A program made the position numbers and the translations under genes. DNA of 28,935 nt from contig JAFGGO010000112.1 in the NCBI GenBank assembly GCA_016930515.1, forward strand, positions 1 through 28,935, written 5' to 3'. Positions 8,572 through 21,180 of this stretch are shown piece by piece (the first letter of the stretch is position 1; each line of letters begins with the position of its first letter). The notes beneath the pieces are model-generated. The model was not told the DNA's origin and made no database searches. It saw only the letters and a program-made list of their open reading frames with translations. The stretch comes from Promethearchaeota archaeon (lineage in GTDB: Archaea > Asgardarchaeota > Lokiarchaeia > Sigyniarchaeales > SOKP01).

Positions 8572-8591
8572 AATCGAATGATTATTCATGG
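8572..8591. promoter_or_regulatory. Degenerate copy of the island palindrome upstream of the DUF134 gene
   Basis: AATCGAAT-GATT-ATTCATGG (10/16 to consensus), just downstream of TATAAAAA and overlapping CTTAAAT. Confidence 0.5.
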
Positions 8592-8624
8592 ATCGTTCAA
8601 TTACACTACTTGATTTGAATTAAA

Positions 8625-9041
8625 ATGGGGAGAAGAGCTGGGAGAAGATGGGTCACTTACCCACCAAATAATTCATATTTTTCGGATACTAAACCAGCGG
8701 AAGAAAGTATAGTCCTGACGATGGCTGAATTCGAAGCCTTGCGCTTAAAACATTACATCAACCTTAATCAACAAGATGCGGCTAAAAAAATGGTCATTAG
8801 TCAACCTACATTTTCTCGCGTTTTAGAGCGAGCGCATCAGAAACTTACACAAGCTTTAATTGAAGGTAAGAGTATTAAGGTGTATGGAGGAAATTATAGT
8901 TTTAGAAAGGCTTTTTTGGGATATGGATGCTTGGATTGCAATCACGAGTGGGAAGACAAACACGCTTCGAAAGAAAAAAAAGTGGATTGCCCGAAATGCC
9001 AATCAGATAATGTTTATTATTTAGTAAAAGAAATAATATAA
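8625..9041 (+). CDS. DUF134 (UPF0251) HTH DNA-binding protein with C-terminal Zn ribbon
   Basis: EFEALRLKHY..LNQQDAAKKMVISQPTFSRVLERAHQKL..ALIEGK; CLDC...CPKC. Confidence 0.9.
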   Translation: MGRRAGRRWVTYPPNNSYFSDTKPAEESIVLTMAEFEALRLKHYINLNQQDAAKKMVISQPTFSRVLERAHQKLTQALIEGKSIKVYGGNYSFRKAFLGYGCLDCNHEWEDKHASKEKKVDCPKCQSDNVYYLVKEII

Positions 9042-9065
9042 AGAATTTTAAAAAAATTTAACATT

Positions 9066-9452
9066 CTAATTACACTGAGCGCCCTCGGCGTGTCCACCGC
9101 CACCACAACTTGGGCCTCCCAAGGGTTTTAACTTTCCCTGCAATAGAAGTTCAATATTTTGATTAATGCTTCCTTCTACACCTTGGTATAAATTAATACC
9201 CATCTGTAAAAATCCCATAAAAGGCCTTCCACCAATGCCACCAACAATCATATCAGTCACATTCCTGTTTTTCATATTGATGACGGGTTCCATGCATCCC
9301 GAATGACCCATATTCTGTAAGGAAAACGCTTTTTGTAGCGTGTTATCGTCGAGTAATTCTACCCCCACAAAATATTCGCAATGTCCAAAATGAGCCGATA
9401 TATTGTCCGATAAATCCGGACCAACCGATGGTATTCCAATTATTCTTGCCAT
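9066..9452 (-). CDS. NifB/NifX family (FeMo-cofactor biosynthesis / Orp-like) protein
   Basis: ISAHFGHCEYF, HSGC, IVGGIGGRP. Confidence 0.9.
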   Translation of the reverse strand: MARIIGIPSVGPDLSDNISAHFGHCEYFVGVELLDDNTLQKAFSLQNMGHSGCMEPVINMKNRNVTDMIVGGIGGRPFMGFLQMGINLYQGVEGSINQNIELLLQGKLKPLGGPSCGGGGHAEGAQCN

Positions 9453-9543
9453 TTTTTTCTCTTCTTAGCGTTTGAATTATGTTTGTATTAATTATTCAAA
9501 TTAAGGCTCGTATTTTAATTTTAATTTTATAAATTAAAGAGTT

Positions 9544-9563
9544 CCTTGAATATTAATTCATAA
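9544..9563. promoter_or_regulatory. Island palindrome (operator)
   Basis: CCTTGAAT-ATTA-ATTCATAA (13/16), upstream of the NifX gene starting at 9452. Confidence 0.7.
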
Positions 9564-9634
9564 TATTTAACCCATATATTTAAAAAGTAGTTATCAAAAA
9601 AGTGAATAATCTTTAAAAAGAGCGAGTAAAATCC

Positions 9635-10567
9635 TTAAGAATCAGTATTTGACCATAAAATTTTTTTTAAATTCTCGTATATTTTATTAATTGCAATACT
9701 TGCTTTTGATTCAGGATCGTGATCTATTACTGCTTCGGCAAAAGACATCGCTTTAGGAATCGATAAATCGTAGGGAATTTTCCCAATTACCTCATAACCA
9801 GTATCTTTTATGAAAGCATTAAAACTTTCTTGAAAAGAGCTCTTTAAATCGTGCTTGTTAATGACAATTCCAAAAGGAATTTTAAATTGTTGGACGACTT
9901 CAATAGCTCTAAGAAGATCGTGTAAACCCGAAGGTGTTGGCTCGGTAATCAAAATTACGTAATCCAAACCCGTTATCGTTGCGATTACGGGGCATCCAAT
10001 TCCAGGTGGACCATCAATTATGGTTAAATTTGATAGATCATTTTCTTCTAAATTATTTGCGTGATCCTTTATTTCTGATACTAATTTTCCAGAAGTCGTG
10101 CTTCCCAGCCTTGTCTTGCCATATACAAACGGTTTATTTAATTTAGTTTTGTAGGTAATTATTTCTCCACTTTTTACGGGAAGAACCTTAAAGGCGTGTT
10201 CGGGACACAGAACCTTACAAGCACCACATCCTTCGCACGCTAGAAAATCCAATATCGGAATTTCAAGGTTTTCATTCCATTTTATAGCATTAAACTCGCA
10301 AAAAATTTCATCAACGCACTTCTTGCAATGTACACATTTTTCTATCAAGAATTCCGCTTTGAGAGTCGTATAGGTAGATCTCGTCTTGATATCGGATTCT
10401 AATGGAGCAGGCATGATGAGTGCCAGATTAGGAGCATCAACATCGCAATCGAGAACGATTGGATCGATCGAATCTTCTCTTGAAGCCAAACTTACTAAAG
10501 AAGCGGTGAGCGAGGTCTTCCCAACGCCTCCCTTGCCAGATATAACCGCTATTGATTGTTTTTTCAT
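9635..10567 (-). CDS. MinD-superfamily P-loop ATPase with inserted 2x[4Fe-4S] ferredoxin domain
   Basis: SGKGGVGKT, DCDVDAPNL, CVHCKKC..C / CEGCGACKVLCP, DGPPGIGCPV, TEPTPSGLHDL. Confidence 0.93.
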   Translation of the reverse strand: MKKQSIAVISGKGGVGKTSLTASLVSLASREDSIDPIVLDCDVDAPNLALIMPAPLESDIKTRSTYTTLKAEFLIEKCVHCKKCVDEIFCEFNAIKWNENLEIPILDFLACEGCGACKVLCPEHAFKVLPVKSGEIITYKTKLNKPFVYGKTRLGSTTSGKLVSEIKDHANNLEENDLSNLTIIDGPPGIGCPVIATITGLDYVILITEPTPSGLHDLLRAIEVVQQFKIPFGIVINKHDLKSSFQESFNAFIKDTGYEVIGKIPYDLSIPKAMSFAEAVIDHDPESKASIAINKIYENLKKILWSNTDS

Positions 10568-10576
10568 CTTTATTCA

Positions 10577-11503
10577 TCACCTATTATCTTTCTCGTGAAT
10601 CCATTCTTTTAATTTATCGTATATCTTTAAAAACGACGCATATGCGCCTCCATCCTTAGAATAATTCGCTTCAACATCCATTAAAGGTGTTCCTTGGCAA
10701 TAAGAATGCACCACATCGTCGTCTAATGGTATGTCACCAAGAATTTTGATGTTTTTATTGCTCAAATTTTCGAGAAATTCGTCTCTAAATCCTAATAATG
10801 AAGACCTATTTACAATAACCTTGTATTCTTTGTTGAGAAGAGTGATGAGCTCAATAATGCGTAATAAATCCATTTCCCCAAACTTTGTAGGTTCCGTAAC
10901 GGGAATTACCAAGTCAGCCATATTTATCAATAATTCCACATCACAATGTGCTCCAGGAGCAGTATCCAAGATAATAATATCGAATTCATTTGGTTTTTGC
11001 TCGATTATAGTCATGACATCTTTTAAAAGATCCTCAACGATAGCAGCCGAACGGGCTTCGGATGGTTTTAATTCACCTATTAAAAGCGAAATAGAGTTTA
11101 CTTCCGAGCGATACTTCCAACCAATTATCTTAGAATCGGGTTGGATTGCACCTGAGGGACAAATTTTATAGCACAGTTTACATCCAGAACAAACCGTTAA
11201 CATTGGGATCGGTACAGCACCATCTAGATAAAGCAGCGCATGAGAAGCACAATTTTCAGCACAAATTCCACATTTCGTGCATTTATCTTCAACAATCTGG
11301 GGTTTAAAGTAGTTAACCAGGCTCTTGTTATTTAAAGTACCTCCTAAAAGAAGGTATGTATTTGGATTTTCAACATCTCCGTCAATGAGCAAGACTTTTT
11401 TACTTTCGTTTTTAAACATCGTTGCGATGTTTACTGCGCATAATGTCTTCCCAGTACCACCTTTACCTCCAGTAACGGTGATGATTTTAGGTCTTTTAGG
11501 CAT
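10577..11503 (-). CDS. MinD-superfamily P-loop ATPase with inserted 2x[4Fe-4S] ferredoxin domain (paralogue)
   Basis: GGKGGTGKT, DGDVENPN, CTKCGICAENC / CSGCKLCYKICP, DTAPGAHC, TEPTKFG. Confidence 0.93.
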   Translation of the reverse strand: MPKRPKIITVTGGKGGTGKTLCAVNIATMFKNESKKVLLIDGDVENPNTYLLLGGTLNNKSLVNYFKPQIVEDKCTKCGICAENCASHALLYLDGAVPIPMLTVCSGCKLCYKICPSGAIQPDSKIIGWKYRSEVNSISLLIGELKPSEARSAAIVEDLLKDVMTIIEQKPNEFDIIILDTAPGAHCDVELLINMADLVIPVTEPTKFGEMDLLRIIELITLLNKEYKVIVNRSSLLGFRDEFLENLSNKNIKILGDIPLDDDVVHSYCQGTPLMDVEANYSKDGGAYASFLKIYDKLKEWIHEKDNR

Positions 11504-11534
11504 GATTCATTAATTTATACTAATTCTTTCAATT

Positions 11535-12005
11535 CTAAAAACCTCGGCCGCCACCACCCATTCCACGACCGCCACCACCCATTCCACGACCGCCACCACT
11601 CATTCCACGACCCATACCGCCACCCATACCTGCGTGAGAACCTACATTTGCAGAATCAATCTGTTCGAGTTTGCCTTTTATGTATAGTTCTACCACTTCT
11701 TTCACGGTCAGTTGTCCACTTGGTGCTTGATAGATTTTCAAGTTCATTGATTTAAGAGCCTGAACTGCGTTTGGACCTAAAAATCCAACAATTACTTCTT
11801 TCACTCCATTATTGCCAACGATTTGAGCTGCTTGAATTCCAGCGCCACCCATTGCATTTTCAGCATTGTTGGGAACGCCTCGCACTTCTTTAATGCTTCC
11901 TTCTTCAATAGTCACTAATGTAAAGCTTGGACAACGCCCAAACCTTTGATTCATCATCTCGTTTAACCCTCCATCACCGTTGGAGGGTATAGCTATTATA
12001 ACCAT
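11535..12005 (-). CDS. NifB/NifX family (MTH1175/orange-protein-like) protein with Gly-Met-Arg tail
   Basis: RFGRCPSF, GGAGIQAAQ, GFLGPNA; C-terminal GGGRGM repeats. Confidence 0.92.
   Translation of the reverse strand: MVIIAIPSNGDGGLNEMMNQRFGRCPSFTLVTIEEGSIKEVRGVPNNAENAMGGAGIQAAQIVGNNGVKEVIVGFLGPNAVQALKSMNLKIYQAPSGQLTVKEVVELYIKGKLEQIDSANVGSHAGMGGGMGRGMSGGGRGMGGGGRGMGGGGRGF
11548..11610. repeat. 3 x 21-bp coding tandem repeat
   Basis: CCGCCACCACCCATTCCACGA x2 plus one copy with a single mismatch; encodes RGM(G/S)GGG repeats on the minus strand. Confidence 0.9.
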
Positions 12006-12060
12006 TTTTTAAATACCTCATTTTTTTATTGTTGTTTTCACTTTTTTCAATGTCAATTAA

Positions 12061-12531
12061 TTAGGATTTTATATTTTTTTCGTAATCATCAATCGCGCGT
12101 CTTAAAGTTCTTACCGCTAATTCAGCGCAATGTTTATGATCATCAGGTAATCCGTTCAACGCCTCGTCAATATCTTCTGGCGTTAACTTTTTTGCGTCTG
12201 TTAAAGTCTTGCCTTCAATAAGCAGGGTTGTTTGGCTGCCCGTAGCAACTGATGCACCACAACCGTCAGTAATGAATTTAACTTTTTCGATTATGTTATT
12301 TCGAATTTTTAAATAAAAATTCATTGTATCGCCGCATGGTCCTAAATATTTTTGCGAAACTGATGTCTCTTCTTCGGGCAGTTCCCCCCAGTTTTTTGGA
12401 TTCTGAAATAATTCAACAATTCTTTCGTTATATTCTTTTATTTCGTTTTCAATGATTTCTTGCTGCAACTGATTTACGAAGGCATCAAAAGAATCGACTG
12501 TTTCGTTTTTCACTTGCTCGTTTTCTTTCAT
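12061..12531 (-). CDS. iscU: IscU/NifU-N Fe-S cluster assembly scaffold
   Basis: FQNPKNWG, GPCGDTM, TDGCGASVA, HKHCAELA (three conserved Cys); ATGA overlap with mrp. Confidence 0.9.
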   Translation of the reverse strand: MKENEQVKNETVDSFDAFVNQLQQEIIENEIKEYNERIVELFQNPKNWGELPEEETSVSQKYLGPCGDTMNFYLKIRNNIIEKVKFITDGCGASVATGSQTTLLIEGKTLTDAKKLTPEDIDEALNGLPDDHKHCAELAVRTLRRAIDDYEKNIKS

Positions 12532-13391
12532 ACCCTATTACCATTTCCTTTATCTAGAATTTCAATTATTCTACTCGTTATTTTTTTGAAGTTCTGAGAG
12601 CTTTCAGAATCTGGATATTTTAGAGTAAATGGTAAACCTATATCTCCTTGTTGACCTATTTCGGTTTCAAAGGGGATCTTTCCCAATAATTCTACTTCAA
12701 AATCTCTTGCTGCTTTTTCAGCACCCCCACTGCCAAAAATATCAATCGTATAACCACATTTGGAGCATTTAAAGCCAGACATGTTCTCAACGATACCTAA
12801 AAGTTTTCTGTCCATTTTTTGCGCCATACTTATCGTCTTTCTTGCATCCATAAGAGCCACTTCTTGAGGTGTTGTTACAACAATTACATTTTCGTCGGGG
12901 ATAAGTTGTAAAATATCTAAAGTCTCGTCAGATGTTCCTGGAGGTAAGTCGCAAATTAAAAAATCCAGATCGCCCCATTCTGCTTCTCCTAAAAACTGTC
13001 GAACGGCCGTCATTTTAATTGGGCCTCTCCAGACGACAGGACTATCTTGGTTAGGAATCAAGAAAGCCATACTCATTACTTTTAGGTTTATTGGGCCTAT
13101 AATGGGATAAAATCGATTTTGATCAGGATCAACTTTAGGTTTAAGAGTAGGATCAATGCCCAACATTTTTGCTACATTCGGTCCAGTAATATCTACATCC
13201 AGGATGCCAGTCTTATAGCCCATACTAGCTAAACTGATTGCAAGGTTTACCGAAACTGTTGTTTTCCCTACCCCACCTTTTCCAGAAATAATTACAATTT
13301 TATGTCTTATCTTGTCGAGATTTTTCTTGATATTTTCTTCTCTTTTATTAATTAGTTCTTGTTTTTCTTCAGGAGTTAATTGTTCCTGCAT
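12528..13391 (-). CDS. mrp: Mrp/NBP35/ApbC Fe-S carrier ATPase
   Basis: SGKGGVGKT, DVDITGPN, WRGP, DLPPGTSD, VTTPQ, ENMSGFKCSKC. Confidence 0.95.
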   Translation of the reverse strand: MQEQLTPEEKQELINKREENIKKNLDKIRHKIVIISGKGGVGKTTVSVNLAISLASMGYKTGILDVDITGPNVAKMLGIDPTLKPKVDPDQNRFYPIIGPINLKVMSMAFLIPNQDSPVVWRGPIKMTAVRQFLGEAEWGDLDFLICDLPPGTSDETLDILQLIPDENVIVVTTPQEVALMDARKTISMAQKMDRKLLGIVENMSGFKCSKCGYTIDIFGSGGAEKAARDFEVELLGKIPFETEIGQQGDIGLPFTLKYPDSESSQNFKKITSRIIEILDKGNGNRV

Positions 13392-13434
13392 TTTTTAACC
13401 TCAAAAAAAAAAAATTATGAAATTATTTGCGTTT

Positions 13435-13935
13435 TTAAGTTCTTATTTGTACTTTGGGCTTAATGGGAGAAGCACCATTCATGTTGGTGATAATGGGACA
13501 ATGTGAAAATACTTTCTCCATCAGTTCGTTGACTTTTTCCTCGCTTGCATCAGCTTTGATTCGAACAACTGGTTCTAACTTGTCGTATCCAGCTAGCAAG
13601 TTATCGTCGATTCCAAAGATTGCACCCAGATTGATATGACCTCGCGAATTAACAGTCATACTTTCAATTTTAATGTCCATGATTTTAGCCCAGAACCTTG
13701 TGACTGCTATTATACACCCGCCTATTGACGATAATATTACTAATAAGGGCGAGGGCCCTTCGTTTGTCCCATCAAGTCCACCAGGCGCATCTATTAACAA
13801 TTTAAACGGCTTGGTATCCATTGAACATTCAATCTGCATTCCATCGTCGAGCATCTTGCACTCAACATTGAAATTTTTCTCTCCATTCTTTATATCGGCC
13901 TTAATGGCCTCGTAAGTTTCCTTAAAACTTGGCAT
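13435..13935 (-). CDS. OsmC/Ohr family protein
   Basis: IDAPGGLDGTNEGPSP, GGC...HCPI two-Cys pattern; ATG at 13935 after an A-run preferred over TTG at 13980. Confidence 0.88.
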   Translation of the reverse strand: MPSFKETYEAIKADIKNGEKNFNVECKMLDDGMQIECSMDTKPFKLLIDAPGGLDGTNEGPSPLLVILSSIGGCIIAVTRFWAKIMDIKIESMTVNSRGHINLGAIFGIDDNLLAGYDKLEPVVRIKADASEEKVNELMEKVFSHCPIITNMNGASPIKPKVQIRT

Positions 13936-14132
13936 TTTTTTATCACTCTTTTTAATTTCGATTAATTTGTATGATTTCAAATTTGTATTTTTTGGCTTAC
14001 TTTATTAATGTTTTTTTCATTTTTAAGGATCCATCGTATCAAACATAAAACCATTAAAAGAAAAGCATATATATTTTCGATACTACTTAAAATACCCTTC
14101 TATGGCTTTTCTTTAGGGCTTTAATTTCACTT

Positions 14133-14531
14133 TCAGTGAACATGATGATGGCCTTCATCGGCTTCCGTGTGTATTTTATCAACACCGTATCCCTTACCCC
14201 CTCCTGGAGTGCAAATGCTTTCACCGCCCTCTAAAGTCCCAGCGATTATTTTTTGGATTATTTCTTCAATCGAACCTGAAGCACCCATGATTACCTCAAT
14301 TCCGTAATCATGGAAAAATTGAATCGCTCTATGACCCATTCCTCCCGTTATCATGCACTTAGCGCCTATTTCATTGATAAATTTAGGAATGCTTCCTACT
14401 TGATGTCCAGGATTCTGATATATCTTTTTATCGATTAACTTGTTGTCTTCTATTGTTATGATTGTGAATTCGGGTGCACGTCCGAAATGTGGACACACTT
14501 GGCCTGCGTCAGTACTGATTGCATATATCAT
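14133..14531 (-). CDS. NifB/NifX family protein with His-rich tail
   Basis: VCPHFGRAPEF, NPGH, ITGGMG, C-terminal HTEADEGHHHVH. Confidence 0.92.
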   Translation of the reverse strand: MIYAISTDAGQVCPHFGRAPEFTIITIEDNKLIDKKIYQNPGHQVGSIPKFINEIGAKCMITGGMGHRAIQFFHDYGIEVIMGASGSIEEIIQKIIAGTLEGGESICTPGGGKGYGVDKIHTEADEGHHHVH

Positions 14532-14591
14532 TGTTAGTACCCATTTCTATTTTAGGCGATTTTTTAACAAAATCTAATAAAAAAAATGAAG

Positions 14592-14626
14592 GTAACTATT
14601 TAAGCATTGTGAATAATAATTCATAA
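14592..14626 (-). promoter_or_regulatory. Island palindrome plus TATA-like element driving the NifX-OsmC-Mrp-IscU-NifX-MinD string
   Basis: Minus strand: TTATGAATTATTATTCACAA-TG-CTTAAATAGTTAC (box 14607-14626, 15/16). Confidence 0.8.
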
Positions 14627-14724
14627 TCTGGATCTTAAAAATTAAGTAAACAAGAGTAAAGAGTTGAATTGTTAAAATTTTTTTTTAGAATTAGAATGTA
14701 CACAAATTCACCAATTATTTAATA

Positions 14725-15084
14725 TTATAATTGTTTAATTATGTACTTTAAGATTTTTTCGTTAAAACTACCTACTAAAATCCCGTTAGTAACAACTTGT
14801 TCTCCATACATTACTATATCTTCTTTGAAAGTCTTTCCATTTTTAAAAAAAATTAAAACAGGAACGGAACATATTCCAAGTTCTACCGCTAGTTTAGAAT
14901 TGTTCCCTATGTCAATTTCGTCATAGCTTATATATTGTTCTTCAGCCATTTTTCTTAGAATTATTGAAAGATTCTTACAAGACTTGCACCATTTTGATCC
15001 TATTTGAAGTACATGTGTACCTTTTTTTGGTACAATGATACCATATTCATTGAAATTGATCAGACTCACGAGATAAAAGCTCAA
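14725..15084 (-). CDS. Thioredoxin-family protein
   Basis: WCKSC active site and LGICSVPVLIFFKNGK cis-Pro motif; start codon uncertain (TTG/GTG). Confidence 0.82.
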   Translation of the reverse strand: MSFYLVSLINFNEYGIIVPKKGTHVLQIGSKWCKSCKNLSIILRKMAEEQYISYDEIDIGNNSKLAVELGICSVPVLIFFKNGKTFKEDIVMYGEQVVTNGILVGSFNEKILKYIIKQL

Positions 15085-15193
15085 CTTTAAGTTATTATGT
15101 GAAATTTACCAGTTTCCTTAATAATCATATTGTATAACATTTTAATAAAGTTTAATAAGACTTCCAATTTTTATCTTAAACATGTTAGAGTAC

Positions 15194-15213
15194 GAATGAA
15201 TATATATTCATAA
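15194..15213. promoter_or_regulatory. Island palindrome (operator)
   Basis: GAATGAAT-ATAT-ATTCATAA (14/16). Confidence 0.75.
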
Positions 15214-15255
15214 CAGAATCGTTATTAAAGTATTTATTATTGTTTTCGCTTCCTA

Positions 15256-15290
15256 TTCTGAATAATCATTCATAATACTTAAATAGTTAC
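15256..15290 (+). promoter_or_regulatory. Island palindrome plus TATA-like element upstream of the first DUF5320 gene
   Basis: TTCTGAATAATCATTCATAA-TA-CTTAAATAGTTAC (box 15256-15275, 15/16). Confidence 0.8.
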
Positions 15291-15336
15291 TTTTACTATA
15301 TTTTTATAGATATAAAAAAAGAGGTGAAATATTAAA

Positions 15337-15714
15337 ATGCCTGGTGGAGATAGAACGGGACCTGCGGGTTTAGGATCGCGAACCGGCAGGGGTTTGGGAT
15401 ATTGCTCTGGTTATGAGAGCCCAGGATATACTAAGGCTCCTGGGGGTTTTTGGCGCGGTGGATTTGGATATGGAGGTAATTATCCTTACGGTCGTGGCTT
15501 AGGAAGAGGAAGAGGGCGTAGATGGGGGTTAAGAGGAAATATTAATTACTTTCCAATTCCCCAACCATATATCAGACCAATAGAGTGGAGTTCCGAACAA
15601 AAAATTACATTTTTAAACCAAGAAAAAGAGTACCTAAACAACGAGATACAAAGCTTGAAAGAAAGATTGGATGAAATATTAAAAGAAATAGAGAATATTG
15701 ATAATAAGCAATAG
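15337..15714 (+). CDS. DUF5320 family Gly/Arg-rich protein with C-terminal coiled coil
   Basis: MPGGDRTGPAGLGSRTGRGLGYC N-terminus, GRGRGRR, coiled-coil end; SD GAGGTG. Confidence 0.88.
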   Translation: MPGGDRTGPAGLGSRTGRGLGYCSGYESPGYTKAPGGFWRGGFGYGGNYPYGRGLGRGRGRRWGLRGNINYFPIPQPYIRPIEWSSEQKITFLNQEKEYLNNEIQSLKERLDEILKEIENIDNKQ

Positions 15715-15795
15715 TGCTTTGAATTTTCTTATTCTCATTTTATTTTTTATTTCAATTATAGCATCAAATATGAGAGTTATTTTAATCAGGAGTTG

Positions 15796-15815
15796 TTATG
15801 AATAAATATTCAGAA
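15796..15815. promoter_or_regulatory. Island palindrome (operator)
   Basis: TTATGAAT-AAAT-ATTCAGAA (15/16). Confidence 0.78.
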
Positions 15816-15856
15816 TACAGCACATTAAAGTCATTTTAAATAAGTGCAGTTCAGAA

Positions 15857-15876
15857 TTATGAATAAATATTCGCTA
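15857..15876. promoter_or_regulatory. Island palindrome (operator)
   Basis: TTATGAAT-AAAT-ATTCGCTA (13/16), followed after 2 nt by TATA-like TTTATTAG. Confidence 0.7.
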
Positions 15877-15879
15877 TAT

Positions 15880-15899
15880 TTATTAGTAATAATTCATAA
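15880..15899. promoter_or_regulatory. Island palindrome (operator)
   Basis: TTATTAGT-AATA-ATTCATAA (14/16). Confidence 0.6.
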
Positions 15900-15946
15900 T
15901 TATCTTACAAACCAATTATTATAAGTAAAAAATGGAGAATGATAAC

Positions 15947-16117
15947 ATGCCTAGGAGAGATGGAACGGGTCCTTCCGGGAAAGGTCCGAAAACTGGACGA
16001 GGACTAGGAAATTGTTCAGTTGATGATTCAGCAAAGAAAAAAACTGCTAATACTGAAACATCCAAAAATACTAGGATGGGTATGGGCAGGCGAAATAGAA
16101 GGGGATCGAGAGGATAA
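15947..16117 (+). CDS. Short DUF5320 family protein
   Basis: MPRRDGTGPSGKGPKTGRGLGNC...GMGMGRRNRRG; the family N-terminus suggests start at 15947 (alternative 15932). Confidence 0.85.
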   Translation: MPRRDGTGPSGKGPKTGRGLGNCSVDDSAKKKTANTETSKNTRMGMGRRNRRGSRG

Positions 16118-16158
16118 TAACTTTATTATAAAAATTAAAAAAAAGCGATGAAAAAATT

Positions 16159-16332
16159 TTGAATTTAAATGAATTTGGATTTGATTTCAAGGATAAATAT
16201 GAGGTAAATGGAAAACCTAAACTATGCTGGTCCTGCATTAAGAAATATGAAACTGGTTTCATGGTAAATAGCAGGTTAAAAATGCGTAGAATATTTTTTT
16301 GTAAGGATTGTTTGGACAAATCGTCTAAATAA
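16159..16332 (+). CDS. Small C4 zinc-finger protein (57 aa, not in the ORF track)
   Basis: Translated by hand from TTG: MNLNEFGFDFKDKYEVNGKPKLCWSCIKKYETGFMVNSRLKMRRIFFCKDCLDKSSK*; CxxC...CxxC; fills the gap between two co-oriented genes. Confidence 0.65.
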   Translation: MNLNEFGFDFKDKYEVNGKPKLCWSCIKKYETGFMVNSRLKMRRIFFCKDCLDKSSK

Positions 16333-16367
16333 TTTTTTTATTTAAAAAAAAGAGGAATTAAGAAAGA

Positions 16368-16745
16368 ATGGAACGCTTTTCAGAATCCATCGAAGATTAT
16401 TTGAAAGCAATTTATATTATTTCAAAAAAAAAAAGAGGAGGGTGGGTCTGTAACAATGAGATTGCTTGTTTCTTAAAAGTCAAGCCTGCTTCAGTAAGTA
16501 CGATGCTTCACAAACTAAAAGAAATAGACCTAATCCAATGGAAACCTCGATCTTCTCTAAGATTAAAACCAAAAGGCAAGAATATCGCACAAGAACTAGT
16601 TCAAAACTATAATAACTTGTTTTTTTTCTTCAAGAAAGTATTGGGCGTGAAGGATAAATCCTTATTAAAGCAAATTTGTTGTAAGATAGAACATATTTTA
16701 CCTTCTGATGCGTCAAATGCCCTTTTGGAATTAGATTCCTTTTAG
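16368..16745 (+). CDS. DtxR/MntR family metal-dependent transcriptional regulator (short form, no FeoA domain)
   Basis: SESIEDYLKAIY, IA..LKVKPASVSTMLHKL HTH, CKIEHIL. Confidence 0.9.
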   Translation: MERFSESIEDYLKAIYIISKKKRGGWVCNNEIACFLKVKPASVSTMLHKLKEIDLIQWKPRSSLRLKPKGKNIAQELVQNYNNLFFFFKKVLGVKDKSLLKQICCKIEHILPSDASNALLELDSF

Positions 16746-16815
16746 TAATTTTAATCGCTTTTTCTTCTTAATTTTACCTTACTATGTTTGTATTAATCAT
16801 TTATATTGTTTTATC

Positions 16816-17514
16816 TTAAAATTTAAAGATAGATCCAACACAGACTTCTTTAAAAGAGCGCGGATATTTTTCCTTAATCATCTGCCTATGTTGGGTACAA
16901 TGACAAGCTCCAATGATTTTTATTCCCTCAAGAAGTGAGAATTTTCTGAATCCGTGTAGTCCACCAAAAATTGCAATAACTTCATTCGATTCGCGAGCTG
17001 CTAAAAGAAAAGACTCCAAACCAGGATGGGTACATCCAACTAACATTACAATTTTTCTAGAATTAATTCTAAGGAATAATGCTTGTTCCTTGATTGCTCC
17101 ACCGAATTGTCCTGATGAAATCATATTTGGTTTAATTTCCATGCTATTGCCAACACCTTGCACCTGCAAGTTTGGAAAGGCTTCTTTATATCGATTACAC
17201 GCAGTTTCGGGAACAATTATTTGAAAATCGTGATTTTTCTTGCTAAGCTCGAATAAACCCCCAGCGTGATCGAAATGATCGTGTGAAATTATTACAGTAC
17301 TTATTTCCATTGGATTAATGTTCGCAATTTTCAAATTATGAAGAAGAATTTTTCCGTTTGATCCCGTATCAAAAAGAATTTGATCGCCCGTTATTTTGTC
17401 TAAAATTAGAGTGGAGAATCCAAAATCCATGACATATCCATCTTTAGCACAAATATCATCATAGACTATTTGTATTTCGAAAGATATTCCATGATCTTGC
17501 ATTTTCATCATCAA
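16816..17514 (-). CDS. MBL-fold metallo-hydrolase (COG1237-like)
   Basis: ILFDTG, ISHDHFDHAGG, GCTHPG, GGLH, CHCT. Confidence 0.9.
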   Translation of the reverse strand: MMMKMQDHGISFEIQIVYDDICAKDGYVMDFGFSTLILDKITGDQILFDTGSNGKILLHNLKIANINPMEISTVIISHDHFDHAGGLFELSKKNHDFQIIVPETACNRYKEAFPNLQVQGVGNSMEIKPNMISSGQFGGAIKEQALFLRINSRKIVMLVGCTHPGLESFLLAARESNEVIAIFGGLHGFRKFSLLEGIKIIGACHCTQHRQMIKEKYPRSFKEVCVGSIFKF

Positions 17515-17535
17515 ACTAAGTTTAAAAAGTATAGA

Positions 17536-18558
17536 TCATATTTTAAAAACAGTACCCGCGCTTGCGTCGTTTACTTTTACGAATTTATTGCTCCTTTTTT
17601 TCATTTCAAAAAGAAAGCGTTCACCGGTGCAATGGATTGGAAAAAGATAAAGGGGATTGTTATCCTCCTGAAACGAAAAAAGGTATTCCATTGTTTCTTT
17701 AAACCTCTCATCCGAGGCGGTGGCCATATGAAACCCTCCTATTACGAGATTTATGAGCTTGTCGGTTGATCCTTTAGCATAATCTAAAGTATTCATTATT
17801 CCAGAATGACAACAGCCGAGCAATACAATGGCATTATCTTCTTTTTCAATAATAATACACTTATCATCTATAATATTATCTATCTCAAGAATACCATTGT
17901 TGTTGAGGAGGAATTCTTTTGAATTTTCAAGTTCATGTACTCTTGGAATCTGACCGCTTAAAGTGATGTTAAAACTGTCAGATTTAAATATTTCCTGTTT
18001 CTTTCTGGTAAAGACAAGTTTACTTCCTGTTTGATCTATCCGATTAATGTCAATAGGAGGTTGACTAACAGCCTTTTGAGAGTCTATTAGAGGTTGGATC
18101 TCCTCTCTTTTCTTTCCATTGTAGTCCTCAAGTTGAACTTCAAAACTTCTCTTGAAAAAGCGTTCTTTTTTTGCGGATTCGTCGCAAAAAACGGGTATTT
18201 GTTTTTTAATTTTCTCTAATAATGGATAAATTACACCAGTGTGATCAAAGTGCCAATGAGATAAGGCAATACCATCAATGTTCTCAAGTTTATCGCCCCT
18301 GATATTCGTATTATAAAGGAAGGTTTGGTTGACGCTTCCAAGATCAAAACAAAAAGTAAAAAATCTCTCTATATCAGATCTAGCCTTTTCCTCTTTAGCA
18401 TTATAAACATTGATCAAGAATCCTAATCCGTGTTCTGCCAAGGATCTGGTTATAAAAGTACGGTTCACATTTATAAAATTTAATACATCTTTATCTGCAA
18501 TCTCGTTAAACGGAGATACTCGATTGTTCGATATTAATGCGATATCTGCTTTAATCAT
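17536..18558 (-). CDS. MBL-fold metallo-hydrolase (COG1237-like, longer paralogue)
   Basis: AEHGLG, FDLG, LSHWHFDHTG, GCCHSG, IGGFH, PIHCTG. Confidence 0.9.
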   Translation of the reverse strand: MIKADIALISNNRVSPFNEIADKDVLNFINVNRTFITRSLAEHGLGFLINVYNAKEEKARSDIERFFTFCFDLGSVNQTFLYNTNIRGDKLENIDGIALSHWHFDHTGVIYPLLEKIKKQIPVFCDESAKKERFFKRSFEVQLEDYNGKKREEIQPLIDSQKAVSQPPIDINRIDQTGSKLVFTRKKQEIFKSDSFNITLSGQIPRVHELENSKEFLLNNNGILEIDNIIDDKCIIIEKEDNAIVLLGCCHSGIMNTLDYAKGSTDKLINLVIGGFHMATASDERFKETMEYLFSFQEDNNPLYLFPIHCTGERFLFEMKKRSNKFVKVNDASAGTVFKI

Positions 18559-18683
18559 AAAAAATCATCACTTTTCTTTACAACATTATTTTAAAAATCA
18601 TCTCGCTTAGAACGATATCTCATTTATTATCATTGAGAGATCTGGTTAAAAGCTTGAGAAGTCTTATAGAGCCTTAACAGTAT

Positions 18684-18703
18684 TTATGAATTAATATTCA
18701 TAA
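18684..18703. promoter_or_regulatory. Perfect-consensus island palindrome
   Basis: TTATGAAT-TAAT-ATTCATAA (16/16) between the divergent MBL and dehydratase genes. Confidence 0.82.
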
Positions 18704-18870
18704 TCCTATATCGTATAGTGTTTATAGAATATAAAAAGCTTTTGAATTTCAGATAAATAGATTTAATCACTTTTAAGTTAAAATAAAAAATGCCATGTTC
18801 TTAATCGTTAATTTTTTTACAATTATTATCTTAAACAAATCAAGAAAAACATCTCTAAACGATAGAATTA

Positions 18871-19902
18871 ATGAAGATTGGAATCCTCGATTCGGGTGTG
18901 GAGACCCCCGAAGAAATAATAATGGCCGCTGAAATGACACCAGTAAGATTGCTTTCAAATCCTTTAATTGAATTATCAAAGTCCAACGAGCATGTTCCTC
19001 CAAATCACTGCATTTGGGCGCGCAATATTCTTGAACAAGCCTTGCAAGCAATTGACGATGATATAAAGGGGATCGTGGTTGCACACGGTTGTGATTGTAC
19101 CAATAGAGAATTTGACATTTGGTTGGAATGCGTTCATCTCGATTTTATGTATTTCTTAAATGCCCCTCTTAAACGCGATGAAATAGCATTGAAATTTTTT
19201 ATAGACGACATCAAAGAGATGATCTCTCAAATCGAAGAAAAGTTTGATGTTTCAATTAATTCGGAAAAGATTCGCAAAGCTATTATTCTAACGAATAAAA
19301 TCCGTCGAATATTAAAGGAAATGTCGGAATATAGGGCAAAAAGAGTTTTAAAAACATCTCAATTTCACGCCTATGTTAAAAAAGTTCAACAACAAGACAA
19401 AACGGAGATGTTAATGTTTTTAGAAAAAGAATTGGAAAGAGTTCAACACGAAAAGACTCCAAATAGCCTTCAAAAACCGATTTTATTAACAGGATCTGTC
19501 ATAGATGACACGAATTTCATCGTATATTTAGAAAATCTGGGATTTGATATCATTACAGACGATCTTTGCATAGGAACCCGATATTTTTGGAATTTAATCG
19601 ATGAAACTTGTGATCCCATCGAAGCATTAGCTAGATATCACCTTGAAAAGCCCATTTACAGCACGAAAAGTCCATCAATAGAACGATTCACTTTTTTAAA
19701 ATACCTTGCTGAAACATATAAGGTTAAAGGCGTGATAAATGTCGCTCAAAAGTTTTGCGAGCCTGTTTTATTTGACCACCCTATAATGAGCACTAAATTC
19801 AAGGAATTGGGGATTCCATACTTGTTTATAGAACTTGAATACAAACAAGAATCCTACAAGCAATTATCTACTCGATTCGAAGCGTTTGGGGAAATTTTAT
19901 AA
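18871..19902 (+). CDS. 2-hydroxyacyl-CoA dehydratase / benzoyl-CoA reductase subunit (HgdB/FldC/BcrC-like)
   Basis: PEEIIMAA, HC, HGCDC, DDLCIGTRYF, KFCEP, TRFEAFGE. Confidence 0.88.
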   Translation: MKIGILDSGVETPEEIIMAAEMTPVRLLSNPLIELSKSNEHVPPNHCIWARNILEQALQAIDDDIKGIVVAHGCDCTNREFDIWLECVHLDFMYFLNAPLKRDEIALKFFIDDIKEMISQIEEKFDVSINSEKIRKAIILTNKIRRILKEMSEYRAKRVLKTSQFHAYVKKVQQQDKTEMLMFLEKELERVQHEKTPNSLQKPILLTGSVIDDTNFIVYLENLGFDIITDDLCIGTRYFWNLIDETCDPIEALARYHLEKPIYSTKSPSIERFTFLKYLAETYKVKGVINVAQKFCEPVLFDHPIMSTKFKELGIPYLFIELEYKQESYKQLSTRFEAFGEIL

Positions 19903-19914
19903 CGGAGAGTTAAG

Positions 19915-21180
19915 ATGGTAGAAAAGAAAAACATCAAAAGCAGGACATTAAAGGCAACGAGCGGTCTCAAGCTGGAAATGGGTAGGCACTACCTTGCAAT
20001 AGAGCAAGCGATAAAAGAAGGAAAACCAACAGCATGGGCAACTTCAGGTTCTCCCGTTGAGCTCTTATACGCGATGGATGTGCAACCAATGCTTCCCGAA
20101 AATTCTGCGACGATTTCTGCGGCCAAGGGACAATCAAAAGGATTTATAGAAATCGCAGAAGATGAGGGATTTTCTTACGATTTGTGTTCTTATTTCAAGA
20201 CGAACATTGGAGTTACTTCAAGTAATACAATCGATATGAGCGTGGGCGGAATAAAAAAGCCAACCTTTATGCTTTCAAGCGATGTCATTTGCGACACGCA
20301 TGTCGACTGGTTCCAGGTTCAATCCAAAAGGTTTAATGTCCCACATTTTACGATCGATGTACCACACGTAGTCAGCAATACAAGCAATAGGCAAAAACAT
20401 TATTTTAAAAAATATGTAATCGAACAGTTATGGGATTTTATTAATTTTATGCAAGAGATCACGCATCACGAATTCGACATTAACAAGGCTCGCGAGGTTG
20501 CCGAAAACTCATTTGACTTGAGTAAAATATGGCAAGACATATTTGAGCTAAGAAAATGCGTTCCAAGTCCTTTGTCGACTAAAGACACCTTTGGAGGATT
20601 ATTTCCCTTGTTTACGATGCCTGGTTTGAAGTCACCTATCAAGTTATATAAAAAAATGTACAAGGAAGCCAAGCAAAGAGTAGATGAGGGAATCGGTGCA
20701 CTCGAAGAAGAAAATTATCGCCTGATGTTCGAAGGCATACCCTTCTGGTATAATCTGAAATTTTTCAATTTTTTGGAACAATACGGAGCAATTATCGTGT
20801 ATGAACCTTACACATATAGTTTCTCGAAATACATGGACCCAAGCATCACCAAGGACATCCTTTTAAACAGTCCCGTGGAAACAATGGCACAACTCATGTT
20901 GAGTTTCTGGTACATTTACGATTTGAAAACACGCGTTCAAAAATTCCAAGAAACTATTAAAAATTGGAAAATTGATGGTGTAATTTTACACAACAATCTT
21001 TCTTGCCGGCCGAACTCTTGTGGATTGTACGATTTGAAAAAGCACCTCATGGAAGATTCAGATGTCCCATGCCTTATCATCGATGGGGACATGAACGACC
21101 CCCGTAAGCTCAATTCCACTCAAACAATCAATAAGATTGAAAGCTTTCTCGAACTTCTTGAAAACCGAAAAAAGAATTAA
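19915..21180 (+). CDS. 2-hydroxyacyl-CoA dehydratase / benzoyl-CoA reductase subunit (HgdA/FldB/BcrB-like)
   Basis: PVELLYAMD..PENS, DLCSY, ICD, SCRP, DGDMNDPR. Confidence 0.88.
   Translation: MVEKKNIKSRTLKATSGLKLEMGRHYLAIEQAIKEGKPTAWATSGSPVELLYAMDVQPMLPENSATISAAKGQSKGFIEIAEDEGFSYDLCSYFKTNIGVTSSNTIDMSVGGIKKPTFMLSSDVICDTHVDWFQVQSKRFNVPHFTIDVPHVVSNTSNRQKHYFKKYVIEQLWDFINFMQEITHHEFDINKAREVAENSFDLSKIWQDIFELRKCVPSPLSTKDTFGGLFPLFTMPGLKSPIKLYKKMYKEAKQRVDEGIGALEEENYRLMFEGIPFWYNLKFFNFLEQYGAIIVYEPYTYSFSKYMDPSITKDILLNSPVETMAQLMLSFWYIYDLKTRVQKFQETIKNWKIDGVILHNNLSCRPNSCGLYDLKKHLMEDSDVPCLIIDGDMNDPRKLNSTQTINKIESFLELLENRKKN

Follow-up and report, generated by a model that had tools for sequence, protein, structure and literature searches.

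A conserved palindrome as the probable operator of the DUF134 protein in an Asgard archaeon

Here, we describe a 20-bp palindrome with the consensus TTATGAAT-N4-ATTCATAA that is repeated in a 28,935-nucleotide stretch of DNA from a Promethearchaeota archaeon (contig JAFGGO010000112.1, the window). The window is contig C166 of a 4.0-Mb, 190-contig metagenome-assembled genome of this Asgard archaeon, labelled G000. As judged from sequence comparison, the palindromes are very probably the operators of the DUF134 protein that is encoded at 8625-9041. The first-pass annotation of the window had proposed one dimeric regulator, most likely DUF134, and this candidate is supported by the co-occurrence of the site with DUF134 promoters, by a model of the homodimer and by the homology of the protein to the DNA-binding domain of DeoR. 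DUF134 (UPF0251) is an old family of uncharacterised function that is widespread in anaerobic archaea and bacteria, and we predict that it acts as a regulator of metal-sulfur-cluster and thiol-redox genes. Full-text literature searches for DUF134, UPF0251, PF02001, COG1342 and DUF5320 found no functional study and, in agreement with what had been noted before, no described operator for DUF134; the NCBIfam name of the family is hypothetical protein. With a conserved operator, a defined regulon and a predicted specificity residue, the family can now be tested directly, and it becomes linked to the Orp-like machinery for metal-sulfur clusters in anaerobes, which is poorly understood. In Asgard archaea hardly any regulons are known so far, and a concrete candidate pair of cis element and trans factor is now at hand. 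It is also a rare case of one operator sequence that is shared by Methanobacteriota, Asgard archaea and, as a one-base variant, bacteria.

The palindrome in the window and in the genome

The repeated 20-base palindrome is real. A search with TTATGAATNNNNATTCATAA at up to three mismatches finds eight sites in the window, at 9544, 14607, 15194, 15256, 15796, 15857, 15880 and 18684, and reproduces exactly the positions and mismatch counts of the first-pass annotation. The expected count is 1.09 (standard deviation 1.03), and eight sites were reached in none of 100 dinucleotide shuffles. When compared with the open reading frames (ORFs) of the window, all eight strong sites prove to be intergenic, as had been reported. 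The earlier statement that no full copy lies in the window outside 8.5-18.7 kb holds as well, with no copy that scores at least 12 in the position weight matrix (PWM) outside 9.5-18.7 kb. A ninth copy at 8572 is weak (10/16 matches, PWM score 7.7), with a core, CGAATGATTATTCA, that matches in 13 of 14 bases. A box in the promoter of DUF134 itself had been claimed and is indeed there, but it is the weakest copy in the genome. Site flanks from other genomes alone, with the core as a given, also yield the TTA...TAA arms and the preference for an AATT spacer. The distance between neighbouring sites was analyzed for 34 non-redundant operator pairs, 12 of which are spaced by 59-62 bp, four by 117-119 bp, four by 51-52 bp and four by 23-25 bp. 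The pairs examined include 15194/15256 and 15796/15857 of the window, C158:11840/11899/11959 and C57:37986/38047 on two other contigs of the genome, and sites in the regions L043, L046 and L169 of relatives. Such a preferred spacing suggests cooperative or phased binding.

In the whole genome the consensus occurs five times at up to one mismatch, four times in the window and once at C158:11959, and all top sites of a genome-wide PWM scan fall at three loci, namely the island of genes in the window, contig C158 and contig C57. On C158 three operators (11840, 11899 and 11959) are located between the divergent genes for a CDF-NifX transporter and for a 782-aa CdhA-like CO dehydrogenase (CODH) subunit. 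The transporter gene (C158:10539-11774; L001) encodes a cation-diffusion-facilitator (CDF) protein with a C-terminal NifX-like (Nitro_FeMo-Co) domain. The two sites at C57:37986 and 38047 stand upstream of a second thioredoxin gene that is followed by cytidylyltransferase, FMN-reductase and MinD-like genes. The MinD-like gene of this operon consists of two overlapping ORFs of 124 and 138 aa (C57:35500-36274; L002:3501-4275), and its orthologue in the related genome G005 is a single ORF (L046:14602-15378); a frameshift, decay to a pseudogene or an error in the assembly may have caused the split. The sites on C158 and C57 are as strong as those of the island, and the earlier view of a regulon limited to the island had to be given up. 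In total, about 14 sites are found at the three loci, nine of them in the island and five on the two other contigs. The regulon is particular in this genome for its size and for its reach, which takes in thioredoxins, the CdhA-like gene and a second metal regulator.

As a background we used a Markov model that was fitted to 679 kb of intergenic-like DNA with 27% GC. Compared with this AT-matched background the motif is enriched, with eight sites observed and 0.2 simulated at a PWM score of at least 20, and 14 observed and 1.5 simulated at a score of at least 17, but the test is partly circular because the PWM was built from the same sites. The independent evidence for the motif lies in the consensus counts and in the conservation across genomes. 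Weaker single sites with PWM scores of 15-18 at C94:19078, C6:15569, C43:10932 and C99:2252 mark possible extra members of the regulon. The site at C94:19078 is found 3 nt before an operon of CCG-domain, FAD-oxidase and CCG genes.

Conservation of the site and features of the DUF134 protein

The motif tracks DUF134 genes across Asgard families, Methanobacteriota and bacteria, and its usual place is the DUF134 promoter itself. In total, the strict core TGAAY-N4-RTTCA occurs in 35 of 119 non-redundant DUF134 upstream regions, compared with a rate of 0.04 per 250 nt over all loci. Among the genomes of the family of G000 and of the neighbouring family, the core TGAATWWWWATTCA outnumbers a reversed control in most (12 vs 0 in G000, 19 vs 2 in G005, 12 vs 0 in G038). 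In twelve larger regions of relatives the palindrome is conserved 5' of orthologous DUF5320, NifX-MinD-MinD, Mrp-NifU, Trx-cytidylyltransferase, CdhA, CDF-NifX and metallo-beta-lactamase-fold (MBL) genes; the site before CdhA was seen only in G000 and G005, which belong to the same genus. In the neighbouring family f2 (G032, G025) one site heads a NifX-MinD-MinD-NifX-DUF134 operon and another one heads DUF5320. Of 24 family members, 23 have a DUF134 orthologue, and in many relatives a strong site precedes the DUF134 ATG by 41-45 nt. In other Asgard families, f14 and f19, with a GC content of 44-49%, the exact sequence TTATGAATATATATTCATAA is positioned 1 or 9 nt before the DUF134 ATG and heads a DUF134-NifX-NifX operon. 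There is also a case of co-loss, since the 99% complete genome G024 is without homologues of DUF134, DUF5320 and NifX3 and displays no motif excess (2 vs 2 for the control pattern). Diverged arrangements were observed as well. Members of another Asgard family (L062, L064, L068) encode short DUF134 forms without a zinc ribbon, with a different recognition helix (SRGTIW) and a different upstream palindrome, TTATGCACA-N10-TGTGCATAA. In Thorarchaeota-type loci (L054, L055, L146, L149) a conserved box ACCGGAATCCTTTT immediately precedes a degenerate TGAATC..GATTCA-like element in the region 5' of DUF134.

Of 30 loci sampled across Methanobacteriota, with a GC content of 31-48%, 29 have the core at a distance of 4-5 nt from the DUF134 ATG, on its 5' side, and a TATA box 3-4 nt upstream of the 20-mer. 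The regulon had been regarded as archaeal, but the same system is found in Bacteroidota and Cloacimonadota as a one-base variant. Here, TGAACATAAGTTCA or TGAGC/GCTCA variants occur upstream of DUF134-DUF5320-NifX/MinD operons, and the general pattern is TGAAC/TGAGC-N4-GTTCA/GCTCA close upstream of DUF134. Promoters of Bacteroidota have the consensus TTTG at -33 and TAnnTTTG at -7, and the bacterial sites appear to fill the space between these two elements and to overlap the core promoter. A search of five other genomes with the strict pattern ATGAAYNNNNRTTCAT was too narrow for defining their regulons and missed the bacteria's own DUF134 sites.

The DUF134 gene is present in a single copy in the genome, and across lineages no other gene for a predicted DNA-binding protein remains associated with the regulon. 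Its product matches the Pfam family DUF134/UPF0251 (PF02001) with 69.4 bits at a cut-off of 27 (E 4e-19). In an alignment of 59 archaeal and bacterial sequences the residues E35, E37, R40, S59, T62 and R65 are invariant, as are the cysteines C102, C105 and C122, and C125 is conserved in at least 90%. The structural model (predicted local distance difference test, pLDDT, of 79) begins with an N-terminal arm, which is followed by three helices and by a beta-ribbon with the four cysteines (Cys4). No solved structure is related to DUF134 along its entire length; a Foldseek search with the full-length model gave no match at E <= 0.001, and only the helix-turn-helix (HTH) and the ribbon match separately. 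The HTH superposes on region 4 of extracytoplasmic function (ECF) sigma factors and on the DNA-binding domain of B. subtilis DeoR, the latter with a root mean square deviation of 0.6 Å and 40% identity over 40 residues. A profile of the 59 DUF134 proteins also matches DeoR (7bhy_A) with an E value of 8.7e-8, and the stretch SQPTFSRIL is aligned with SRPTVSRLL. The DeoR domain has been solved on the dra-nupC-pdp operator, ATTGAACAAAATTTCAAT (PDB 7BHY, 8R7Y; PMC11229326), and in this structure R39 contacts G4 and R34 contacts T12 (PMC11229326). In the alignment DeoR R39 corresponds to R65 of DUF134 and DeoR R34 to residue 60.

The identity of residue 60 varies together with the site. A glutamine goes with TGAAT in 26 of 26 cases and an arginine with TGAAC in 4 of 4 strict cores, without any cross case, and Methanobacteriota add 29 further pairs of Gln and TGAAT; residue 60 is Gln in every archaeal protein with a TGAAT site and Arg in every bacterial protein with a TGAAC-type site. 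This covariation and the location of DeoR T12 at the mirror position of the variable fifth base fit a direct readout. If DUF134 contacts DNA as DeoR does, the invariant G would be read by the invariant R65 and the fifth base pair of each half-site by residue 60, with Gln for T/A in archaea and Arg for C/G in bacteria. In a symmetric DUF134 homodimer, the two recognition helices of the DeoR type (S59-Q60-P61-T62...R65) would lie in consecutive major grooves of TGAAT-N4-ATTCA. Modelling supports a homodimer, with a score of 0.58 against 0.00 for the best control, runs that agree in at least 43% of the contacts and a partner pLDDT of at least 68. The modelled interface is symmetric and is formed by residues 36-46 and 68-84. 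The mark for a homodimer was reached by 20 of 30 proteins whose solved structures are pairs of one chain and by 1 of 23 whose structures are single chains; the result for DUF134 may reflect its likeness to DeoR, because a dimer of the DeoR DNA-binding domain has already been solved.

Gene content of the island, promoter layout and proposed regulation

The features of the island are given below by coordinates, with the strand for genes and gene runs. The gene names of the first-pass annotation turned out to be correct.

8572-8591: weak copy of the putative operator in the DUF134 promoter, 33 nt 5' of the ATG and directly 3' of the TATA-like ATATAAAAAT; relatives have strong sites at the same place
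8625-9041, plus strand: DUF134 protein of 138 aa, the proposed regulator, with a sigma-70-region-4/DeoR-like HTH and a C-terminal Cys4 zinc ribbon
9066-9452, minus strand: NifX-like (Nitro_FeMo-Co) gene 1, by domain match
9544-9563: putative operator, 91 nt upstream of NifX-like gene 1
9635-14531, minus strand: co-oriented genes for NifX3, OsmC, Mrp/ApbC (MrpORP-like), NifU_N, NifX2, MinD/Fer4 b and MinD/Fer4 a, by domain matches
14607-14626: putative operator of the NifX3 operon; on the minus strand, TG and the TATA-like CTTAAATAG come next
14725-15084, minus strand: thioredoxin-like gene
15194-15213: putative operator on the thioredoxin side of a divergent promoter region, from the TTATGAATNNNNATTCATAA search
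15256-15275: putative operator for the long DUF5320 gene, followed by TA and the TATA-like CTTAAATAG
15337-15714, plus strand: DUF5320 protein, long form
15796-15815: distal putative operator upstream of the short DUF5320 gene, from the TTATGAATNNNNATTCATAA search
15857-15876: middle putative operator, 61 bp from the distal one at 15796
15880-15899: proximal putative operator, overlapping the TATA-like TTTATTAG
15932-16745, plus strand: short DUF5320 gene, 57-aa CxxC/CxxC ORF (16159-16332) and 125-aa DtxR/MntR-like gene (16368-16745), in a gene order that is kept in relatives
16816-18558, minus strand: two MBL genes
18684-18703: perfect 16/16 putative operator, 125 nt from the MBL pair and 167 nt from the HGD-D pair
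18871-21180, plus strand: two 2-hydroxyacyl-CoA dehydratase D-component-like (HGD-D) genes

The island thus contains DUF134, three NifX-like genes, two MinD-like ATPases with Fer4 inserts, Mrp/ApbC, NifU_N, OsmC, a thioredoxin, two DUF5320 genes, a DtxR/MntR-like gene, two MBL and two HGD-D genes. The run at 9635-14531 is probably one long transcription unit; in relatives, sub-operons of this NifX3-MinD/Fer4 run have operators of their own. Among sequencing runs, no RNA data set was found to contain the stretch 12000-19000 of the window, and the only match was a sediment metagenome that is probably the source of the DNA. The Mrp gene (12528-13391) corresponds to positions 1-253 of the MrpORP model and NifX3 (14133-14531) to positions 265-365, both below the equivalog cut-off, and together they look like a split form of the fused Desulfovibrio MrpORP. 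The genes at 15932-16745 form a probable operon, and the DtxR/MntR-like gene is read here as a target rather than as a regulator. The 57-aa ORF in this operon, on the plus strand and with a CxxC...CxxC pattern, is found beside the same genes in relatives (57% identity, L043:7001-7192; 63% identity, L046:10051-10224), and because of this conservation it is probably a real small gene. The HGD-D pair is a possible member of the regulon, and its membership is weaker because the site is 167 nt upstream.

According to the mechanism that we propose, DUF134 would control its own gene together with a metal-sulfur-cluster and thiol-redox regulon. The predicted targets are the NifX-like proteins, the MinD/Fer4 ATPases, Mrp/NifU, DUF5320, the thioredoxins, OsmC, the MBL-fold proteins, the CDF-NifX transporter and the CdhA-like CODH subunit. 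At the DUF134 promoters of Methanobacteriota and of the Asgard families f14 and f19 the layout is TATA, 3-4 nt, operator, 1-9 nt, ATG. Lying between TATA and ATG, the operator overlies the point at which a transcript with a short leader or none begins, and this position over the transcript start is the classic one for an archaeal repressor. DUF134 most likely represses transcription until a signal releases it, because the site in its own promoter lies between TATA and the start codon and because the bacterial site appears to overlap the core promoter.

The signal might be the redox, Fe-S or metal status of the cell, perhaps sensed via the conserved Cys4 ribbon. We put this forward tentatively, as a best guess that is based on the conserved cysteines, on the content of the regulon (Fe-S carriers, thioredoxins, OsmC, CODH) and on the redox response of the orp genes in Desulfovibrio. 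A wider reading is more speculative still, and we regard it as doubtful in its full extent: DUF134 could be an anaerobe-specific transcription-factor family of both prokaryotic domains, which would serve as a general sensor of Fe-S, metal-cluster and thiol-redox state and as a counterpart of IscR and OrpR, with the Cys4 as a redox-labile Zn-thiolate or Fe-S site. In organisms of the Lokiarchaeia type a single autoregulated operon would then have expanded to a multi-operon regulon that reaches CODH/acetyl-CoA synthase (ACS), thioredoxins and a second metal regulator, and the phased pairs at about 61 bp would reflect cooperative higher-order binding.

Alternative explanations and comparison with known systems

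Several observations weigh against DUF134 as the regulator or as a repressor. The operator at its own promoter is degenerate in this genome (PWM score 7.7, as given above). In the genome G097 (L169) four operators are found upstream of DUF5320, and neither DUF134 nor NifX3 was found in this assembly, which is 92% complete and consists of 220 contigs. The strict core is absent within 250 nt upstream of DUF134 in most cases, namely in 60 of 86 of the Q type and 11 of 15 of the R type. Some of the DUF134 genes without a strict core are internal to operons, and others may use diverged sites or none. The placement of the Bacteroidota sites between the -33 and -7 elements was judged by eye. The covariation of residue 60 coincides with the split between archaea and bacteria and may, for this reason, represent very few independent events. 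Finally, at several target promoters the operator lies upstream of TATA, in the position of the TFB-recognition element (BRE), and this arrangement fits an activator as well as a repressor.

This last point leads to a dual function, in which DUF134 represses its own promoter and activates targets with a site in the BRE position by recruiting TFB/TBP. SurR and TrmBL1 are described as activating by such recruitment from upstream of TATA. In three promoters of this genome (NifX3, long DUF5320 and CDF-NifX) the operator is followed by 2 nt and CTTAAATAG, and the 109 Asgard sites include 28 flanks in which a TATA-like 8-mer begins at a distance of 0-3 nt from the operator, far above any other offset; a spacing of such precision is typical of activators. 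However, in Methanobacteriota, in f14 and f19 and in bacteria the same classes of targets share the operon of DUF134 behind a site in the repressing position, and opposite signs for one module would be odd. One operator at the short DUF5320 promoter, that at 15880, overlaps the TATA-like element itself, and an operator 2 nt from TATA must cover the BRE too, which should exclude TFB. For these reasons we consider repression at the BRE-adjacent target promoters to be probable and a dual function rather unlikely, as far as the arrangement of the promoters can tell.

The other explanations concern the regulator itself or the nature of the palindromes. The 125-aa DtxR/MntR-like protein (16368-16745), which had been named as the alternative regulator, would turn the genes into a metal-responsive regulon. 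Its gene is located in the island downstream of three operators, its C-x-x-E-H metal-ligand motif is kept and several of the targets handle metals. However, an island-type orthologue with at least 50% identity was not found in G006, G008, G012, G015, G016, G018, G022 and G024, nor in family f2, and the first seven of these family members as well as f2 keep the motif before DUF134 and the targets. The DUF134 promoters of Methanobacteriota and bacteria carry the site with no such gene nearby. Furthermore, the archaeal DtxR-family box is of another type, TTTAGGC-N3-CCTAAA in the case of Haloferax TroR (PMC10783522). The DtxR-like protein was therefore rejected and is very improbable as the regulator. 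An unlinked factor, for instance of the CRP/FNR, Rex or LexA kind, might bind the palindrome, with DUF134 being merely a conserved target. The FNR box (TTGAT-N4-ATCAA), the Firmicute LexA/Cheo box (GAAC-N4-GTTC) and Rex boxes resemble the motif, but Rex boxes have GAA-N4-TTC, not GAA-N6-TTC. Such a factor would need to be kept, together with its target, in Asgard archaea, Methanobacteriota and Bacteroidota alike, and it would leave the covariation of residue 60 with the base and the DeoR precedent unexplained, so that we regard this explanation as improbable. It is hardly credible that the palindromes are no operators at all and represent chance AT-rich repeats, remnants of mobile elements, RNA hairpins or terminators. 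Intergenic DNA has only 27% GC here, and AT-rich near-palindromes are common in it, but the motif is enriched over AT-matched and dinucleotide-shuffled backgrounds, exactly the same sequence is present in genomes with 44-49% GC, the TATA box and the ATG stand at a fixed position relative to it, and the sites are found upstream of genes and in divergent promoter regions.

The reading of the palindromes as DUF134 operators can be compared with several known systems. The LexA/Cheo, FNR and Rex boxes share with the DUF134 site the form of an inverted repeat of about 5+4+5 bp, and the bacterial DUF134 variant TGAAC-N4-GTTCA contains the Cheo core. In contrast, the DUF134 site tracks DUF134 genes in lineages that lack these factors, and no Rex or LexA domain was found in this genome. 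The search for the Rex domain (PF06971) was negative here and matched 7 control genomes, and the LexA domain (PF01726) gave no match over the cut-off in this genome (best 21.4 bits). The HTH_Crp_2 model yielded borderline, generic winged-helix matches only, one of them to the other DtxR paralogue, and this search is non-specific. The archaeal DtxR-family regulators are similar in that they use palindromic operators at archaeal promoters, often in tandem and at metal-related genes, but their boxes are of another type and the motif described here does not co-occur with the DtxR-like gene.

With respect to the genes that are controlled, the Orp system of Desulfovibrio is similar. To our knowledge, archaea lack sigma-54. 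In Desulfovibrio vulgaris the orp operons are under the control of OrpR and sigma-54, and their expression follows the redox potential (PMC8359166). Both systems include an MrpORP-like carrier, NifX-like proteins and MinD/Fer4 ATPases, and both are small dedicated regulons with divergent operons. The regulators differ largely, since OrpR has a [4Fe-4S] PAS domain and works on sigma-54 as an enhancer-binding protein, while a small HTH/zinc-ribbon protein and a palindrome at the core promoter would take this role here. In the Desulfovibrio orp literature no DUF134 member of the orp operons was found.

The closest known system is the DNA-binding domain of DeoR on its operator, with which the domain and the type of site are shared. 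Both proteins have a homologous HTH of the sigma-70-region-4 type, and the two base-contacting arginines of DeoR align with residue 60 and R65 of DUF134. DeoR binds as a dimer to a palindrome in the same GAA-N6-TTC register, TTGAAC-N4-TTTCAA compared with ATGAAT-N4-ATTCAT here. There are also distinct differences. The tetramer-forming SorC effector domain was not found in the 138-aa DUF134 protein, for which Pfam gives DUF134 and zinc-ribbon matches only, and DUF134 is not a member of the SorC family for this reason. Instead of a domain for sugar-phosphate effectors it carries an Arg-rich N-terminal arm and the Cys4 zinc ribbon. Unlike DeoR, DUF134 would also act on archaeal promoters with TATA and BRE elements, and its regulon would comprise metal-sulfur and redox genes, whereas that of DeoR serves nucleoside catabolism.

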